From contig JABDFL010000001.1 of NCBI GenBank assembly GCA_013286575.1, forward strand, positions 9,905 to 73,904: 64,000 nucleotides of DNA. The letters run 5' to 3'. This DNA is from Candidatus Omnitrophota bacterium (GTDB lineage Bacteria; Omnitrophota; Gorgyraeia; Zapsychrales; Fredricksoniimonadaceae). Position 1 is the stretch's first letter. Each line of letters starts with the position of its first letter. This document shows positions 1,744-9,644 of the stretch, in pieces. Position numbers and translations under genes: made by a program. A model generated the notes under the pieces. The model saw only the letters and a program-made list of their open reading frames with translations. It did not search any database and was not told the DNA's origin.

Positions 1744-4668
1744 ATGTATTTTATGATGAGAAATTTTGGTATTGGTTTTTTGGTGTTCTGTTTTGTTTTT
1801 TCCAGCGTTAATTTGGGCCTGGCGGCCCAGGTCGTAGAAGTCCCGCCCATCATTGTCGAGCCTTCCTATAATTTAAGTGAAATAAACGAGCAGATGCTTG
1901 AGCAGGACAGGATAAACCGGGACCAGGAATTAGCGATCAAAGGCCTTGCCGAGCAAAACCAGAGTCTCGCCCAGACAGCCCAACAGGACAGCACTCTTGA
2001 TCAAATCAACCAAACCATGCTTAATTACCGCAATGCGCTTTTAGAACGCGACCGCGCCCGTATCATGGCCAATGGCCTGAGGGCTTCCCGGTACGATGAT
2101 CTGATCGCCTTGACTGAAGATGTCGACGGCATGAAAGGCGTCGGCCCGACCTTACAGCTTAAAAGTGACCTGATCGAACAGAAATATAAAATCCTCATGG
2201 ACCTTAAAAATGAGATGGTCGTCCTGAATAAAAAGCTCGAAGAAGAAGCGCTGCATAAGCATTCTGAAAACATAAACCAGGAACAAGCACAAAAAATCCT
2301 GTTCCTCACCCAAAGATTGGCTGAATTGGACCAAAGGGTCTCCCGTTACGACGAGATCTTGGCCGAAAAAGACCAGCAGATCGCCCAATTGAAATTTAGT
2401 TTAGCCGGGGCCCGAAAAGAGGCCGCGGGTAAAGATATCCAGTTAGGCCAATTGAGGCTGCAGTTGTCCCAAACACAGACCCAGGTGGGTTTATTAAAAT
2501 CAGAACTTGAGAACAGGATCGCCCGAGAGAATAATCAGGACCAGGAGAGCTCTGCCCAAAAAGCCCAAGTGGACCAATTGAAAATGCAGTTGTCCCAAAA
2601 ACAGGCCCAGGTGGATTTATTAAAATCAGAACTTGAGAATAAGATCACCGAAGAGAATAATCAAGGCCAAGAGGCTTCCGCCAAAGATGAGATGGTCAAA
2701 CAGCAGCGCGATCAGATAACTGTTTTGAAGGCACAGGCGCAGGAATTATCTTCTAAAGAAGAGCTGATGCAATCACAGGCAGACCAAATGGCCAAGGAAT
2801 TAGGATTATACAAGGACCAGGGCACGGCGTATGCCAGCCTGCAGGCCGAGTTTATGGCTTTAAAAAATAAAATCAGCAGCCAGGCCGTTGATTTAAAAAT
2901 CAAGAATGAATCCATCCGCTGGTTAAACCAGGTCCTGGCCGTTACCAAAAACAAGGCGGAATATTATAGGTTGACTGCCCAGCAGGACCGCATGACGATG
3001 CGGCAAGTCCAGGATGCAGTGCTGAAGGTCAAGGATGATTTTACCCGGCATTTTAAGGATTACGATCAATTTGAAAATGCCATTATTTCCTTAAAGGAGC
3101 AGGTGGGCCGTATGGGCGGGTTATTATCCCAAAAGCAGGAGCAGGTGGAACTGTTAACACAGTCACAGCAGGAGCTAAAGGCCCAGCTTCGGGAAAAAGA
3201 AAATCAAATAGACGATCGCATCAGCTTGGCCAAACATTTGATCGCCCTGCAGCAGCAGGAAGCATCTTTATTGCAGGAGAAAGGCAGCCTCGAGGCAAGT
3301 CAAAACGACCTTTTTGACAGGCATTTCCTTGATCTTGAGAAGAAAATCAAGGGCTTGGCTGCCAATCACCAACTTCAGGCCATGGATCTGCAAAGCCGTA
3401 TGGAAGAATTGAGAGAAGAACTTGAGCTTAAAGAGCAGCAGGGGAAGTCGCTCAGGACAGAATTAGAAAATAAGATTGCCGACGAGAAAAACCAAAGCGT
3501 GCTGGCCTCCCAGATCCAGGATTTGGAAGCCCAGCTCCAGGATAAGGAAAACCAGATCAGCGCCATGAAAACGGAAATCCAGTCAGGCCGGGAGACACAA
3601 GACCAAACAGACACCCTGAGGCAGCAATTGGCGGACCAGCAGAATAAAGCGGATGTACTAAAGCAGGAGCTAGACAGTAAGAATGCCCAATCCGACAAAA
3701 TGACCCTGATGATCTCCGATTATCAGCAAAAACTGGAGTCCAAGGACAATGCCTATAATGAAGAATTGCAGCAGGTGCTGGATTCCAAAAATGCCCAGGC
3801 CCAGATGGAAGGGCAGATCGTTGATTTAAATGCCCGGCTGCAGCAAAAAGAGGCGCAGATCGTCGAGATTAAAAAGAACTTGTACGATTTACAGCAATCA
3901 ATGGGGGCCAGGGACAGGGAGTCCCAAACCCATGATCTAAGCCTTTCCATAATGCAGCAGAAAATGCTGGATGGGAAGATCAATGAATATCAGGACAAAA
4001 TAAATGGATTGCAGGCAACCAATGACAGGCAGGCAGGGCAGGTGGCAAAACTTAAAGCTGATTTGGCACTGGCCCGCCAGCAGCTGGTCGGCGGCATGCC
4101 CAGCAGCGACGAGATTGATTTCCTGAGGGCAGGGCTTAATAAGGCCGCCCTGCAGTTAAAGCAAAAAGATGCGATGCTTTTACAAATCAAGGCCAATGCC
4201 GATGAGTATGAAAAAGAATTCAAGGAGCAGACCCAGGAATTTTTAAGCTTAAAGGAGCAGTTGCAAAATGCCCTGGATAAAATCAGCCGCAAGGATGAAG
4301 ACCTGACATACAAAAACATGGAAATAATCCGCCTCAAAGAGCGTTCCCATAATTTGGGGAATGGTGATTTGCAAAACCAGGTGAGGGTATTGACCCGGAA
4401 GCTTGAGGCTGCCGAGAAAAGACTCCGCAGTAAAACCTATGGGGGCGGGAAAGCAGGGATACTGGAAGGCCAGTTAGAGGACGCCAACGAACAGATCAAA
4501 GAGCTCCATGCCCAGTTAAATGAGTTCATCCTACCTGCCAAAAGCGATGCCCTTAGGGAAAAATTAAAACAGGCTTTGGATAAAGTTGATCAACAGGGAC
4601 ATATGATCAATGTCTTGGTCCAGAAATTGCAGGACGCCGGGAAGAGTGTCAATCTCAGCCAACTGTAG
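1744..4668 (+). CDS. Very large secreted or membrane-anchored coiled-coil protein (974 aa).
   Basis: N-terminal hydrophobic signal or TM segment (FGIGFLVFCFVFSSVNLGLAAQ). The rest is rich in Q/E/K/L heptad-like sequence with repeated LKSELENKI and QLQ motifs. No enzymatic domain recognised. Confidence 0.7.
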   Translation: MYFMMRNFGIGFLVFCFVFSSVNLGLAAQVVEVPPIIVEPSYNLSEINEQMLEQDRINRDQELAIKGLAEQNQSLAQTAQQDSTLDQINQTMLNYRNALLERDRARIMANGLRASRYDDLIALTEDVDGMKGVGPTLQLKSDLIEQKYKILMDLKNEMVVLNKKLEEEALHKHSENINQEQAQKILFLTQRLAELDQRVSRYDEILAEKDQQIAQLKFSLAGARKEAAGKDIQLGQLRLQLSQTQTQVGLLKSELENRIARENNQDQESSAQKAQVDQLKMQLSQKQAQVDLLKSELENKITEENNQGQEASAKDEMVKQQRDQITVLKAQAQELSSKEELMQSQADQMAKELGLYKDQGTAYASLQAEFMALKNKISSQAVDLKIKNESIRWLNQVLAVTKNKAEYYRLTAQQDRMTMRQVQDAVLKVKDDFTRHFKDYDQFENAIISLKEQVGRMGGLLSQKQEQVELLTQSQQELKAQLREKENQIDDRISLAKHLIALQQQEASLLQEKGSLEASQNDLFDRHFLDLEKKIKGLAANHQLQAMDLQSRMEELREELELKEQQGKSLRTELENKIADEKNQSVLASQIQDLEAQLQDKENQISAMKTEIQSGRETQDQTDTLRQQLADQQNKADVLKQELDSKNAQSDKMTLMISDYQQKLESKDNAYNEELQQVLDSKNAQAQMEGQIVDLNARLQQKEAQIVEIKKNLYDLQQSMGARDRESQTHDLSLSIMQQKMLDGKINEYQDKINGLQATNDRQAGQVAKLKADLALARQQLVGGMPSSDEIDFLRAGLNKAALQLKQKDAMLLQIKANADEYEKEFKEQTQEFLSLKEQLQNALDKISRKDEDLTYKNMEIIRLKERSHNLGNGDLQNQVRVLTRKLEAAEKRLRSKTYGGGKAGILEGQLEDANEQIKELHAQLNEFILPAKSDALREKLKQALDKVDQQGHMINVLVQKLQDAGKSVNLSQL
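2461..2706 (+). repeat. Intragenic tandem duplication of about 2 x 123 bp (about 85% identity) inside the coiled-coil gene.
   Basis: cagttgtcccaaa.acag.cccaggtgg.tttattaaaatcagaacttgagaa... occurs at 2461 and again at 2587. The protein repeats are LSQTQTQVGLLKSELENRIARENNQDQESSAQK and LSQKQAQVDLLKSELENKITEENNQGQEASAK. Confidence 0.7.
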
Positions 4669-5014
4669 CGCGGACCTTTTCTAATAAGTCCGGGGTGTTG
4701 ACAGGTTTTAAGAGGTAGGCTTTGATCCTGTGCCGTTTAAACAATGGCTCTGTCTTGCTTTCGGCAGTCAGGACAATGACGGGGATTGCGGCAATGGCAG
4801 GGTCGCTGTTTTTCTTCATGATAAAGGTATAGCCATCCATCTTGGGCATGTGCACGTCCAACAAAATCAGGTCCGGTATTTTCTTCTTCAATACTTCCAA
4901 AGCTTGCTCGCCATCTTCAGCCGAAATGACATCATACCCATTGCTTTGGAGCGTGTGTTTAATAAGATCAACATTGACACGATCGTCATCCACCACAAAA
5001 ATACATTTAGGCAT
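4655..5014 (-). CDS. Stand-alone response-regulator receiver (CheY-like REC) domain protein.
   Basis: 119 aa: VVDDDRVNVDLIKHTLQSNGYDV...LILLDVHMPKMDGYTF...VIVLTA..K. Has the phospho-acceptor Asp and conserved Lys, and no output domain. Its 3' end overlaps the end of the convergent 1744..4668 gene by 14 nt. Confidence 0.8.
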   Translation of the reverse strand: MPKCIFVVDDDRVNVDLIKHTLQSNGYDVISAEDGEQALEVLKKKIPDLILLDVHMPKMDGYTFIMKKNSDPAIAAIPVIVLTAESKTEPLFKRHRIKAYLLKPVNTPDLLEKVRATVG

Positions 5015-5122
5015 CAGTTTTTAGTCCTTATTTTATTTCCGCGTTGGCTTTGTTCCCCGGATTCTATCTTTTACTAAATTACCGGGCTTGTCAACGTTTT
5101 TAAAAACAGTTTTTGACCGGCC

Positions 5123-5191
5123 TCATCGTTCATTTTTGTCCAAAGATCTGTAACCGACAGCCTCGGCGATATGCGGGGCTTCGATGGTTCC
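5123..5191 (-). pseudogene. Orphan duplicate of the comM 3' end. It encodes ...GTIEAPHIAEAVGYRSLDKNER*, whereas comM ends ...PEHIAEAVGYRSLDRASF*.
   Basis: Translation of the minus strand gives a 12/12 aa match to the ComM C-terminus with many synonymous DNA differences. It lies just beyond the RAYT gene, on the side away from comM. Confidence 0.5.
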
Positions 5192-5216
5192 ATTATACCT
5201 CCGGGAGGTGTAATGG
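5190..5216. repeat. 27-nt near-perfect palindrome (REP-like hairpin) CCATTATACCTCC-G-GGAGGTGTAATGG. It overlaps the 3' end of the RAYT gene.
   Basis: Self-complementary with one mismatch. A second copy lies at 5513-5539. Confidence 0.7.
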
Positions 5217-5714
5217 TGTGGAAGCAGAAGAATAGGGCCACTCTTCAGGCGTTTTTATAATATTTTCTTTAACAGGATTGTAATGCACGTATTGGATCCG
5301 GTTATTCAATCCCTTTATATCCAGAATGATTCGGTTGCCAAATCGATTTTGCCATAATGGTCCCCGCCGATTGTGTCTTAAGTTGAAATAATTGGAATAA
5401 GCATTTAATGTCCTTCGCATAAAGGTTTCAATTCCCTTATTTTCCAATTGTTGAAGTATGAAATGGACGTGGGTGGGCATTAGGCAGAAAGCAATGATGT
5501 TTACTAAAGGGACCATTACACCTCCGGGTGGTGTGATGGCGGTTCTTTTTATTACGTAACTAAAAGGCCTGATATGTCCGTCATATCTGTAGTATTCCAT
5601 TAGCCCCAGCATTCTTTGGTATTCTTCTTTACAACTGAAGATCGTATACCCGTAGATGCTTTTGTTATAAATGTGATGGAATGATTTATTTTCAAAAGGA
5701 CAAAGGCGTTTCAT
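5193..5714 (-). CDS. REP-associated tyrosine transposase (RAYT), of the IS200/IS605 TnpA-like HUH Y1 family.
   Basis: 173 aa. HuH motif MPTHVHFIL. C-terminal block YVHYNPVKENIIKTPEEWPYSS matches the RAYT signature (Y...NPV...WP.SS). Both palindrome copies are translated within the ORF (ITPPGGVMV internally, TPLHLPEV at the C-terminus). Confidence 0.75.
   Translation of the reverse strand: MKRLCPFENKSFHHIYNKSIYGYTIFSCKEEYQRMLGLMEYYRYDGHIRPFSYVIKRTAITPPGGVMVPLVNIIAFCLMPTHVHFILQQLENKGIETFMRRTLNAYSNYFNLRHNRRGPLWQNRFGNRIILDIKGLNNRIQYVHYNPVKENIIKTPEEWPYSSASTPLHLPEV
5513..5539. repeat. Second copy of the REP-like palindrome (CCATTACACCTCC-G-GGTGGTGTGATGG, 2 mismatches), inside the RAYT coding sequence.
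   Basis: Same orientation as the copy at 5190-5216. It encodes an in-frame extra segment upstream of the HuH motif. Confidence 0.7.
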
Positions 5715-5720
5715 ATATTT

Positions 5721-7247
5721 TTAAAAAGAAGCCCTATCCAACGACCGGTATCCAACGGCTTCAGCAATATGTTCGGGTAAGATAACATCACTTCCAGCCA
5801 AGTCACTGATGGTGCGGGCGATTTTAAGGATTTTATCGTGCGCCCTTGCTGAGAATTTCAGTTCCTCCATGGCTGAGACCAATATCCTTTTGGCTTCTTT
5901 TGTAAGAGCACAAAAATTGCGCAAGTGCGCGCTTTCCATGTGGGCGTTGCATAAGACGGGTTGGCCCTGGAATCTCTGCCATTGCAGCTGGCGCGCCCGG
6001 GTGGTGCGCGCTTTGATGGCCAGGGACGTCTCTTCCAGGGGGACATCGATGAGTTCACGGGTTTTTAAAGGCAGGGCGTGCAAATGGATGTCGATGCGGT
6101 CGAGCAGGGGGCCGGAAATTTTTTGCCGGTAACGCTCAACCTGCAGGGAAGAGCAGCGGCAAATTTTTCCTGCCACGTCCTTCCAGCCGCACGGGCACGG
6201 GTTCATCGCCGCAAGGAGCATAAAGCGGGTGGGAAATCGTAAACTCCCCCTGGAGCGCGCGATGGTGACATACCCGTCTTCTAAGGGCTGTCTCAAAACT
6301 TCCAGCACATGGCGGTTGAATTCCAGGAATTCATCCAGGAATAAAACGCCGTTATGCGCCAGGGTCACTTCACCCGGGCGGGGCCCGCTGCCGCCGCCGA
6401 TAATGGCCGTGTCCGAGGCCGTGTGATGAGGTGCCCTAAAGGGGCGCTGGGTGATAATACCGTCGGTGTTTCTAAGCAGGCCGGCCACCGAATGGATCTG
6501 GGTGGTTTGCAGCACTTCGGCCGGCGTCATGTCCGGTAAAATGGTGGGCAGGCGTTTGGCCAGCATGGTCTTGCCGCTGCCGGGAGCGCCGATGAGCAGG
6601 ACATTATGCCCGCCGGCAGCTGCTACCTCAAGGCCCCGTTTAAGGGATTGCTGGGCCTTGACTTCGCTAAAATCCAAACGGCTGGGACGGGAATTCTTAA
6701 GCAGGAAATCAAAATCTGTTTTTACAGGCGTCAGCGTTTGCGGGTCCATTAAAAAAGCCACCACTTCGTTTAAATGCCGCGCAGGGAAAACCGGACAGCC
6801 GGCCAGGGCCGCTTCTTTGGCATTTTCAAAAGGAACTATAAGGCCCCGGCAATTACTGGAGGCCGCAGCCAGCGCAACAGACAAAGCACCCTGCACAGGC
6901 TGTACGCGTCCGTCCAAAGAAAGTTCACCTAAAAAAGCATACGGGTCTAAAGCCTCCTGAGATATTAAGCCCTGTGCTGCCAAAACACCCAGGGCAATGG
7001 CCAGATCATAACAGGCCCCTTGCTTTTTGGTGTCCGCAGGCGATAAATTGATGGTGATCCTTTGGGTGGGAAATTCAAAGTCGCTGTTTTTGATGGCCGC
7101 GCGGATGCGCTCACGGCTTTCTTTAACAGCATTGTCCGGCAAGCCGACAACGATGGTGTTGGGTAATCCAGCGCTTATATCCGTTTCAATGGCAACAGGA
7201 TAGGCTTCCAGGCCGCAAAGGCCAAACGAAGAGATTCGGGCTAGCAT
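5721..7247 (-). CDS. comM: Mg-chelatase-like AAA+ ATPase of the YifB/ComM family.
   Basis: ORF track 5721..7307. The conserved N-terminus MLARISSFGL...GLPNTIVVGLPDNAVKESRERI begins at the Met at 7247. Walker A GAPGSGKT, sensor motifs and a C-terminal helix-turn-helix-like tail are present. Confidence 0.85.
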   Translation of the reverse strand: MLARISSFGLCGLEAYPVAIETDISAGLPNTIVVGLPDNAVKESRERIRAAIKNSDFEFPTQRITINLSPADTKKQGACYDLAIALGVLAAQGLISQEALDPYAFLGELSLDGRVQPVQGALSVALAAASSNCRGLIVPFENAKEAALAGCPVFPARHLNEVVAFLMDPQTLTPVKTDFDFLLKNSRPSRLDFSEVKAQQSLKRGLEVAAAGGHNVLLIGAPGSGKTMLAKRLPTILPDMTPAEVLQTTQIHSVAGLLRNTDGIITQRPFRAPHHTASDTAIIGGGSGPRPGEVTLAHNGVLFLDEFLEFNRHVLEVLRQPLEDGYVTIARSRGSLRFPTRFMLLAAMNPCPCGWKDVAGKICRCSSLQVERYRQKISGPLLDRIDIHLHALPLKTRELIDVPLEETSLAIKARTTRARQLQWQRFQGQPVLCNAHMESAHLRNFCALTKEAKRILVSAMEELKFSARAHDKILKIARTISDLAGSDVILPEHIAEAVGYRSLDRASF

Positions 7248-7381
7248 ATGAAGTCCACTATGGTAGGGGGAATTAACGGTCACACAACGCTTGCTTGGGG
7301 GAAGCAAGCATCACTTGCTTTTTTGAAGAGCAAGGATATAATGTAAGCCTAACATAAACAGGATTATCCGTCAAATTTTTC

Positions 7382-7843
7382 ATGCTAGGCCTATACCCAC
7401 ATTCGTTTTTTCCGGAGATATTTGATAACCGGATCCTTTTGATCACCTTGCTCGTTTGGGTCCTGGCCCAGATGATCAAGGTCCTTTTGGGGATTTTGAA
7501 GGAGAAACGGTTTAATTTCCGTTGGTTTATCGGCACCGGCGGCATGCCTTCCAGCCACGCGGCCGGAGCGTCGGCGTTGGCGACCTCGGTAGGGTTGGAA
7601 TACGGTTTTAACAGCCCTTTGTTTGCAGTAGCCGCTTCTTTTGCCATCGTAACGATGTTTGATGCCCAGGGGGTGCGCCGCGCCACAGGTTATCAGGCCA
7701 CCATCCTTAATAAAATGATGGATGATATTTATTCCAAAGGCCAGGTTGAAGAGCAAAGGCTTAAAGAATTAGTGGGGCATACGCCCAGGGAAGTGTTGGC
7801 AGGGTTTATTTTTGGCGTTATTTGCGCCATGATTTTATACTAG
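7382..7843 (+). CDS. Divergent PAP2 / acid phosphatase-vanadium haloperoxidase-related membrane protein (DUF212, YuiD-like).
   Basis: 153 aa, with motifs GGMPSSHAAGASALATSVG and TMFDAQGVRR. Confidence 0.7.
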   Translation: MLGLYPHSFFPEIFDNRILLITLLVWVLAQMIKVLLGILKEKRFNFRWFIGTGGMPSSHAAGASALATSVGLEYGFNSPLFAVAASFAIVTMFDAQGVRRATGYQATILNKMMDDIYSKGQVEEQRLKELVGHTPREVLAGFIFGVICAMILY

Positions 7844-7851
7844 GAGGACCC

Positions 7852-8676
7852 ATGAACCAGAAGATTTTAGTCGGTATTGTAGCAGCCATTGTATTAGTCG
7901 TTGGCACCGTCGTCGTGCTTCATCAACACAAAGCAGCAGCTGCTGCCCAGGATTCCGAGGAAACAAACGTCCCAGTTAACCAGCTCTTAGACCAGGCATC
8001 CAAGTACGAGGCCGATGGGGACAAACTTAAAGCCAAGGAAGCTTATGACCAAATCATCAGTAATTATCCGGATTATGAAAAGATCGAAGACGTGCAGGAC
8101 AAACTTGGCGCATTGAACATCGACCTTATTTTTTCTCCCGCCCAAATGCCCCAAACTATTTCTTATGAAATCGTCCCCGGGGATTCTTTAGGGAAATTGG
8201 CGCGGAAATTCGGCACCACGACCCAGCTTATCAAAAGGGCCAACGGGCTCAAGAGTGATGTGATCCGCACAGGCGAGACGCTGCGGATATGGACGGCACC
8301 CTTTAATATCCTGATCAACAAATCACAGAATGTCCTGTTCCTCAAGTCCGGCGAAGAGGTGCTTAAAATTTATCATGTGTCGACGGGAAAGGACAATATT
8401 ACGCCGGTGGGTTCCTTTAAGATCGCCAGCAAAATAGAAAATCCGGTATGGTATAGAAATGGAGGGGCGCCCATTCCCTCTGAAAGCCCTGAGAATGAAT
8501 TAGGCAGCCGTTGGATGGGTTTTGATAAAGACCCGCATTACGGCATCCACGGCACCCTTCATCCCGAATCCATCGGGCAGCAGGTGACGGCCGGCTGTGT
8601 CCGCCTGAAGAACGAGGATGTCGAGGAGCTTTTTGACATCGTACCCGTCGGGACTGAAGTGACCATCCAAAATTAA
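7852..8676 (+). CDS. L,D-transpeptidase (YkuD domain) with an N-terminal TM segment and a LysM domain.
   Basis: ATG at 7852 is preceded by AGGAGG. LysM: YEIVPGDSLGKLARKFGTTTQLIKRANGL. Catalytic region HGTLHPESIGQQVTAGCVRL contains Cys. Confidence 0.8.
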   Translation: MNQKILVGIVAAIVLVVGTVVVLHQHKAAAAAQDSEETNVPVNQLLDQASKYEADGDKLKAKEAYDQIISNYPDYEKIEDVQDKLGALNIDLIFSPAQMPQTISYEIVPGDSLGKLARKFGTTTQLIKRANGLKSDVIRTGETLRIWTAPFNILINKSQNVLFLKSGEEVLKIYHVSTGKDNITPVGSFKIASKIENPVWYRNGGAPIPSESPENELGSRWMGFDKDPHYGIHGTLHPESIGQQVTAGCVRLKNEDVEELFDIVPVGTEVTIQN

Positions 8677-8690
8677 TTTTAAGGACATTT

Positions 8691-9644
8691 ATGGCAACAC
8701 TGGATTTTGAAAAACCGATCCTTGAGCTGGAACATAAAATCAATGACTTGCGCCAAATGGGCTCCAAGCGGGTGACCCTTGAGCCTGAGATCAAGCGCCT
8801 GGAGTCTAAGCTCGAGAAGCTTAAAAACGACGTCTATAACAACATGACCTCCTGGCAGCGTGTGCAGATCGCGCGCCACCCCAAACGCCCCTATACGCTT
8901 GATTATATCCGTATGATGACCGATGAATTCCTGGAATTGCACGGCGACAGGCTTTTTGCCGACGATATGGCCATGATCGGCGGCTTTGCCAAGATCGACG
9001 GGCAGAAGGTGATGGTCATAGGCCACCAGAAGGGCCGTGACGTTAAAGAAAATGTTTTACGTAATTTCGGCTGCGCGCATCCGGAAGGTTACCGCAAGGC
9101 CATGCGATTGATGCGCCTGGCTGCCAAGTTCCAGGTGCCGGTCGTTTGCCTGATCGATACGCCGGGCGCCTACCCGGGCATCGGCGCGGAAGAGCGCGGG
9201 CAGGCCCAGGCCATTGCTGAAAATTTGCGCGACATGGCCGGCGTCAGGACGCCTATCGCCGCGGTCATCATCGGTGAGGGTGGCAGCGGCGGGGCCTTGG
9301 GGATAGGGGTGGCAGACCACATTTTTATTTTGCAGCACGCCTATTATTCTGTCATCTCTCCTGAAGGCTGCGCCTCCATCCTTTGGCGCAGTTCTTTAAA
9401 AGCCCCGCAGGCCGCGGAAGCCCTGAAGCTTCACGGGGAAGATTTGATCAAATTCAATATTGTGGATGAAATCATCCCTGAGCCCTTGGGCGGCGCCCAC
9501 CGTGAGCCGCAGGAAGTGGCCCTTTTGTTAAAGACGGCGCTCATTAAGTATTTTAAGAAAGCATCCTCTTTAAGTCCTCAAGAACTTCTCAACGCCCGTT
9601 ACAAAAAATACCGTAATATCGGTGAATTCATCGAGAAAAAATGA
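8691..9644 (+). CDS. accA: Acetyl-CoA carboxylase carboxyltransferase alpha subunit.
   Basis: 317 aa: RHPKRPYTLDYI...IDTPGAYPGIGAEERGQA...IIGEGGSGGALGIGV. Confidence 0.9.
   Translation: MATLDFEKPILELEHKINDLRQMGSKRVTLEPEIKRLESKLEKLKNDVYNNMTSWQRVQIARHPKRPYTLDYIRMMTDEFLELHGDRLFADDMAMIGGFAKIDGQKVMVIGHQKGRDVKENVLRNFGCAHPEGYRKAMRLMRLAAKFQVPVVCLIDTPGAYPGIGAEERGQAQAIAENLRDMAGVRTPIAAVIIGEGGSGGALGIGVADHIFILQHAYYSVISPEGCASILWRSSLKAPQAAEALKLHGEDLIKFNIVDEIIPEPLGGAHREPQEVALLLKTALIKYFKKASSLSPQELLNARYKKYRNIGEFIEKK

Follow-up and report, generated by a model that had tools for sequence, protein, structure and literature searches.

In the DNA analysed here, 64,000 nucleotides of a contig from a Candidatus Omnitrophota bacterium (JABDFL010000001.1, hereafter the window), the 3′ end of the gene comM occurs twice. 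This gene, also termed yifB, encodes a Mg-chelatase-like AAA+ ATPase. Its working end is followed by a gene for a transposase of the RAYT type (repetitive extragenic palindrome-associated tyrosine transposase), and on the far side of the RAYT gene lies a fragment that encodes a second comM end. Probably, a RAYT cassette together with a donor-type comM tail recombined into the native comM gene and left the native end behind as a dead fragment; confidence in this reading is moderate. Judged by sequence affinities, the native comM end is the fragment, and the working one was brought in with the RAYT gene.

Two comM tails and an empty-site relative

The product of comM matches the Pfam families ChlI, Mg_chelatase and Mg_chelatase_C as well as TIGR00368 (593 bits). 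The stop codon of the gene lies at 5721-5723 on the minus strand, the protein has the C-terminus ...DVILPEHIAEAVGYRSLDRASF, and the working tail reads ILPEHIAEAVGYRSLDRASF before the stop, or ...SDVILPEHIAEAVGYRSLDRASF over a longer stretch. Directly past the 27-nt palindrome that overlaps the RAYT stop codon, the minus strand reads NGTIEAPHIAEAVGYRSLDKNER and then a stop, in a frame without a start codon. The original prediction, which had placed the end of comM at 5721 and the fragment at 5123-5191, is right to within a few bases, with comM homology beginning at about 5187-5191. It had also described a match of 12 out of 12 amino acids with many synonymous differences, and this is borne out. 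Fragment and working tail have the core HIAEAVGYRSLD in common (12/12 residues), and the DNA of this core differs at 10 of 36 positions and in 9 of 12 codons, each change being synonymous. The longest identical run of nucleotides between the two tails is 5-6 nt.

Which copy is ancestral can be judged from relatives that have no RAYT gene at this site. In two such relatives, L002 (78% ComM identity) and L089, comM leads directly into the response-regulator gene and coiled-coil gene that the window also has. The closest relative of the window is L089, with 86.4% DNA identity over 4990 nt from upstream through comM and 87.6% in the body of comM itself, and its locus contains neither a RAYT gene nor a palindrome. 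The comM gene of L089 ends in IEAPHIAEAVGYRSLDRKER (longer stretch ...SIEAPHIAEAVGYRSLDRKER) before the stop, and its 85-nt spacer aligns block-wise with the sequence past the window fragment (TGAGG...TCAAAAACTGTTT...GTTGACAAG...AATTTAnTAAAAGATAGAA). The comM tail and spacer of this RAYT-less relative are thus orthologous to the window fragment and its downstream sequence, in support of the earlier suggestion, which took the fragment beyond the RAYT gene for the displaced original end and the working end for something brought in by the RAYT unit.

The same affinities appear when the last 63 nucleotides of comM are compared. The fragment is identical to the L089 tail at 53 positions, while the working tail agrees with L089 at 40 and with the fragment at 36. 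The working tail is closer to the tails of RAYT carriers, with 50 identical positions in L087, 49 in L090 and 46 in L084, and at the amino acid level it equals the L087 tail (21/21 residues); L087 also carries the closest RAYT (88% amino acid identity). Fragment and L089 tail have 19 of 21 residues in common, and the proportions of nonsynonymous and synonymous differences between them are 0.04 (pN) and 0.58 (pS). Because this divergence is nearly all synonymous, the fragment would have been a working tail until recently. Its unusual ending, ER before the stop, is also found in intact comM proteins of other samples (DRKER in P0051, DRNER in P0055). The right flank of the insert is likewise L089-like in the intergenic region, the response regulator and the end of the coiled-coil gene, and the informative sites of the intergenic region join the window with L089 at 14 positions and with L002 at 2.

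On the left, comM itself is mosaic. Along most of the gene, informative sites that join the window with L089 exceed those that join it with another sequence by about 5:1; over the last ~90-190 nt, the balance shifts to about 1:1 or reverses. With L084 as the third sequence, the counts are 193:42 upstream of position 5900 and 26:25 downstream of it; with L088, they are 64:16 and 18:27 (Fisher p about 1e-5 in each case). From about 5808 (ATCAGTGAC...), the window resembles L087 and not L089. It is this turn from L089-like to carrier-like site patterns that argues for a native fragment and an imported working end. Since both flanks appear native, the imported stretch would run from about 5810 or 5915 to 5190 (Table 1).

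Table 1. Features of the comM-RAYT locus, in window positions
Feature	Position	Strand	Remarks
comM/yifB, Mg-chelatase-like AAA+ ATPase	5721..7250	-	intact, 509 aa; body apparently native (L089-like), 3′ end probably imported
Putatively imported donor-type comM 3′ end	5721..5810	-	encodes ...ISDLAGSDVILPEHIAEAVGYRSLDRASF and stop; left limit somewhere between ~5810 and ~5915
RAYT-like Y1 (HUH) transposase gene	5714..5193	-	173 aa; ATG 6 nt past comM stop
Internal copy of cognate palindrome	5513..5539	.	within RAYT open reading frame, in frame, encodes ITPPGGVMV
3′ palindrome (REP-like), 27 nt	5190..5216	.	overlaps RAYT stop codon; outer foot is the right junction of the putatively imported DNA
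Putatively displaced native comM 3′ end, pseudogene fragment	5123..5189	-	encodes (T)IEAPHIAEAVGYRSLDKNER and stop, or (S)IEAPHIAEAVGYRSLDKNER and stop from 5187; stop codon 5123-5125
Apparently native comM-to-response-regulator intergenic region	5015..5122	-	conserved blocks GTTGACAA...ATTTnnTAAAAGATA; aligns with post-comM sequence of L089 and L002
Response-regulator receiver gene, apparently native 3′ neighbour of comM	4655..5014	-	PF00072; directly after comM in RAYT-less L002 and L089

The palindrome-bounded RAYT cassette

The RAYT product matches PF01797 with 26.4 bits (cut-off 23) and the REP_Tyr_transpos family NF047646 with 71.8 bits, which is under the cut-off of 80; in the latter match, residues 71-162 alone align. 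Its sole match in the PDB is E. coli TnpA_REP (4ER8, E=2e-6), which covers the HUH and tyrosine motifs (MPTHVH and YVHYNPVK), and there is no match to the solved IS200/IS608 TnpA structures at E<=1. Among the carriers, pN/pS of the RAYT gene is about 0.12-0.17 (dN/dS about 0.085-0.13), and the gene is under purifying selection. It occurs in one copy within the window. A scan of 4900-5800 for promoters and terminators gave nothing exceeding shuffle expectation.

Homologues of this RAYT with 58-88% identity were located in their contigs, where they are bracketed by lineage-specific cognate palindromes, the 3′ one overlapping the stop codon. The palindrome 16-mer of the window cassette is ACACCTCCGGGAGGTG. 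In four unrelated contexts (moaA/murB, a GGDEF gene, TPR genes and L092), the loci cease to be homologous exactly at the outer palindromes. The mobile unit is, as far as these alignments indicate, a discrete palindrome-RAYT-palindrome cassette of ~650 nt, and the comM tail would not be part of it, because cassette homology in unrelated contexts ends at the palindromes. The 5′ palindrome occurs in L084, L087, L088, L082, L085 and L086 and has been lost in the window and in L090, so the window copy cannot be a complete element.

The GGAGGT half of the 5′ palindrome lies ~10 nt before the RAYT ATG in L084 (3313-3343), L087 (161-190) and L088 (653-682) and resembles a Shine-Dalgarno sequence. In the window (5715-5720) and L090 (2465-2468), which have no 5′ palindrome, 4-6 nt separate the comM stop from the RAYT ATG, and expression of RAYT may depend on transcription and translation of comM in these two. 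The in-frame internal palindrome is also found in relatives (L082 4779-4799, L084 3516-3542, L087 369-389, L088 863-891, L090 2643-2673). It encodes ...TPPGG... in a variable loop ahead of the HUH motif and co-varies with the flanking palindromes by lineage; self-recognition, autoregulation or a tolerated REP insertion are possible explanations. No further palindromes that could be dispersed REP copies were found in the window or in the flanks of the related loci.

Six cassettes with RAYTs of 84-89% identity, those of the window, L084, L087, L088/L091 and L090, all lie directly after a comM stop codon. At all six loci, the conserved stretch reaches exactly as far as the 3′ palindrome foot, past which the flanks differ. 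In the window, the foot is followed by the comM fragment from about codon -20. A decayed comM fragment follows it in L084, with a start ~32 codons before the stop and thus ~12 codons upstream of that in the window, and a possible third comM fragment (GGSET...) follows it in L091, where the contig ends. Unrelated genes and no comM fragment are found there in L087, L088 and L090. Identities between the RAYTs are uniform (84.5-88.9%) and do not track those between the comM bodies (74.6-87.6%). Because of this, and because the closest relative L089 lacks the gene, lateral acquisition of RAYT is favoured, and its lateral spread appears to fit these distances better than strict vertical descent.

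The cassette of L085 is flanked by a 23-nt direct repeat (22/23 identical, 1926-1948 and 2616-2638), which corresponds to the last 6 codons and stop of the adjoining GGDEF gene and is a second, near-identical, gene-tail copy in the cassette family. Such a repeat is unexpected of Y1 transposases, which are not known to make target duplications. In a systematic search for non-palindrome direct repeats around 31 related cassettes, L085 alone was positive. The outer palindromes of related cassettes also adjoin or run into the stop codons of adjacent genes (L082 4468-4502 and 5093-5123, L085 2585-2618, L086 5539-5571), so that no intergenic space is left outside the cassettes, which points to a preference of the cassette for the immediate 3′ ends of genes.

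Proposed recombination and its alternatives

In the favoured reading, the ancestor of the window lineage, of Omnitrophota type, would have had a comM gene ending in ...IEAPHIAEAVGYRSLD(K/R)(N/K)ER and, immediately after it, the response-regulator gene, an arrangement still found in L089. The donor would have been a related lineage with a palindrome-RAYT-palindrome cassette directly past the comM stop, as in L087, L088, L090 and L084. Homologous crossover within the last ~90-190 nt of comM would have made the left join, and at the right end native comM, ~20-23 codons before its stop, would have been fused to the outer foot of the 3′ palindrome. This second join would be non-homologous, whether illegitimate, hairpin-stimulated or catalysed by RAYT. 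The outcome would be a full-length comM gene with a donor tail, the RAYT gene and a stranded, non-coding native tail, such that the last ~20 codons are duplicated and the native intergenic region and response-regulator gene are left untouched. The right junction is exactly at the palindrome foot, and microhomology between this foot and native comM is at most 2-4 nt (GG/GGAA). We infer recombination of the homology-facilitated illegitimate type; RAYT may have had a role in making the right junction. Because the palindromes delimit the mobile unit and one of them is missing from the window copy, the donor tail is most likely a co-transferred flank and not a built-in part of a site-specific element.

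Several points weigh against this reading. In the last ~60 codons of comM (window 5721-5900, compared among the window, L001, L002, L084 and L087-L090), pS is 0.72-1.0 in every pair, RAYT-less pairs included, against 0.55-0.72 in the remainder of the gene. The left breakpoint and the tail phylogeny rest on few sites because the comM end is near synonymous saturation in all pairs, and this saturation is also the reason why synonymous divergence (dS) of RAYT against the tail was not used for dating the event. No donor closer than ~80-87% was found, so that affinities, in place of a near-identical source, are the ground for the import. In its second half, the response-regulator gene shows no clear grouping with L089 (19/16/32 sites), and two of the sequences compared, L089 and L084, are error-prone long-read contigs. 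Finally, a join at the palindrome foot in several loci is unexpected of ordinary illegitimate recombination, which hints at a step that depends on the hairpin or on RAYT.

The original prediction had described an element that integrates into the 3′ end of a gene and carries a replacement for that end. The replacement of the tail is supported. A site-specific element carrying the tail fits less well, since the insert has neither an integrase nor an identical att-type core and its boundaries are palindromes and not a point inside comM. A self-contained element, the strict form of the predicted one, in which the unit includes the last ~20-35 codons of comM, RAYT inserts site-specifically, the insertion is silent and the native end is displaced, is considered unlikely. 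It would account for the position of all six closely related cassettes directly after comM, for the star-like RAYT distances (84.5-88.9% against 74.6-87.6% for comM), which suggest horizontal spread always ending at comM, and for a right junction that is always a palindrome foot. Displaced comM fragments in the window, L084 and possibly L091, and the tail copy of a different gene beyond the L085 cassette, also agree with it. However, the distant cassettes in four unrelated contexts share palindrome-to-palindrome homology alone, and the comM fragments start at differing codons (about -20 in the window and ~32 before the stop in L084). The two tails have no identical core longer than 5-6 nt, and the tails of the carriers are more diverged than the RAYTs that accompany them. 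In addition, the window copy is without one end, and L087, L088 and L090 are without a fragment.

A related proposal gives the transposase a more active part. The cassette of this Omnitrophota clade would be active and would insert time and again at gene 3′ ends, into comM no fewer than two or three times independently and into the GGDEF gene in L085. Each entry would regenerate the gene's end and strand the old one, with RAYT making the join at the palindrome foot; this too is considered unlikely.

The direction of transfer might also be reversed. A lineage that already had comM (with RASF in its tail) and RAYT would then have imported the fragment and response-regulator region from an L089-like relative, with the join at the palindrome foot. 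The structure is symmetrical and would allow either side to be the foreign one, the response-regulator gene is not clearly L089-like in its second half, and the right flanks of the cassette vary between carriers. Yet the comM body and 5 kb upstream of it are closest to RAYT-less L089 (86-88%) and the tail is not, so that this reading requires a second recombination event to account for the mosaic within comM, and it is judged quite improbable.

A local origin of the second tail is less probable still. Insertion of the cassette would have copied ~65 nt of comM, and the copies would have diverged in place, for which the near-identical 23-nt duplication of a neighbouring gene's tail around the L085 cassette offers a parallel. 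Divergence in place predicts that the non-coding copy should decay, but it is this copy that stayed close to the L089 tail (84%), with mostly synonymous changes, and the coding copy is 57-63% identical to both others and 21/21 in amino acids to L087. In-place duplication was rejected on this ground, that the conserved copy is the non-coding one. Y1 transposases such as those of IS200/IS605 are not known to produce target duplications, which also weighs against it.

Chance similarity or an assembly chimera, which the metagenomic origin of the sequence alone would favour, has a negligible probability: a 12-residue match is expected at ~20^-12 per position, the fragment matches a real comM tail at 19/21 residues and 53/63 nucleotides with conserved intergenic sequence downstream, and the junction has no shared sequence of k-mer length able to cause a chimeric join. 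The chance match that the original prediction had named as a refutation is thereby excluded. The window sequence is also present, identical, in an independent Logan assembly (L081), and a long-read contig of a related genome (L084) has the same architecture; an assembly artefact is an unlikely explanation of the locus.

Known systems and other rearrangements at comM

The closest counterpart of the proposed recombination is C-terminal displacement by homology-facilitated illegitimate recombination, which has been described for type VI secretion system (T6SS) and Rhs loci (PMC5361080, within which Jackson 2009, de Vries & Wackernagel 2002 and Prudhomme 2002 are cited on this topic). At Rhs, contact-dependent inhibition (CDI) and T6SS effector loci, incoming DNA brings a copy of the resident gene's conserved 3′ part, which serves as the homology anchor for recombination, the join on the other side is non-homologous, and the resident 3′ end is orphaned just downstream. 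The window is similar in its donor-type sequence, in the native 3′ part kept downstream and in having an empty-site relative, L089. It differs in its gene, which encodes a housekeeping AAA+ ATPase, in its passenger, a transposase cassette and not a toxin/immunity pair, and in a non-homologous join located exactly at a palindrome foot. Because both tails encode the same motif, comM gains nothing new. If the favoured reading is right, C-terminal displacement, known from toxin loci, extends to a housekeeping gene, the fragment merits annotation as a comM pseudogene remnant, and the comM 3′ end is unreliable as a phylogenetic marker in this group.

REP/RAYT systems, such as E. coli TnpA_REP and the Pseudomonas RAYT-REPIN pairs, resemble the window in having a Y1 HUH transposase with HxH and YxxxNP motifs and cognate flanking palindromes. 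Unlike these systems, the window has no dispersed REP copies in 64 kb, has a palindrome inside the open reading frame and scores below the NCBIfam cut-off, and its RAYT belongs to a discrete ~650-nt cassette that is found in unrelated contexts and was apparently acquired laterally. In current descriptions (PMC5581495), a RAYT is a domesticated gene, present in a single copy and passed on mostly by vertical descent, with flanking 16-mers that are abundant across the genome; the way in which RAYTs enter new genomes has been little documented. L089 and the window would in this respect form a before-and-after pair with the molecular scar of the lateral acquisition of a RAYT-like cassette. The repeated-entry proposal, if true, would provide a route for supposedly domesticated RAYTs into new genomes, and an HUH-transposase counterpart of the integrase islands that rebuild their target gene.

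Elements of the IS200/IS605 type have distinct subterminal left-end and right-end hairpins, occur in multiple copies and make no target duplication. The cassette is like them in being a small unit with a Y1 transposase alone, hairpins at both ends and varied genomic contexts; its ends differ in being near-identical perfect palindromes, and one member, L085, has the 23-nt flanking direct repeat. The protein itself is RAYT-like; as a unit, the cassette seems to behave more like an IS200-type element.

Integrase-type islands can rebuild the 3′ end of their target gene, as at attachment (att) sites of the tRNA/tmRNA type, and AbaR/Tn6022-type islands in Acinetobacter interrupt comM without restoring it. 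The locus is like these in having a gene end on each side of the insert and comM as the target. It is unlike them in that the insert is ~0.6 kb, with no integrase or Tn7-like genes and no identical att core, and the absence of integrase and att core shows that it is not an integrase island. As the original prediction had anticipated, RAYT is the sole gene between the tails. The link that it drew to comM as a hotspot for islands holds insofar as comM is the target, but as an analogy only, since the known islands interrupt comM.

Other rearrangements are found at comM in related contigs. In L169, a full-length comM (2015-3508, minus strand; 77% amino acid identity to the window) is inverted relative to an orphan 3′ fragment (3944-4408, plus strand), and L170 is arranged likewise. 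The L169 fragment encodes 155 amino acids of the 3′ part of a more window-like comM (84%) and lies ~440-490 nt from the full-length gene. The comM gene appears to have been replaced or displaced repeatedly in this group. Short orphan Mg_chelatase_C reading frames on long contigs (P0060, P0072 and a set from Isosphaeraceae) were considered as possible displaced tails and rejected, and those of L167 and L168 are intact comM genes split by long-read frameshifts. A scan of metagenome DNA with the back-translated tail EAxGYRSLDKNE, in a collection without the source contig itself, gave no match. In L167, ~3.6 kb of extra genes (5300-8886) separate comM from the response regulator. An IS240-type DDE transposase lies just upstream of comM in L084 (544-1602), and the P0041 contig has an IS3-type pair beside a truncated comM.

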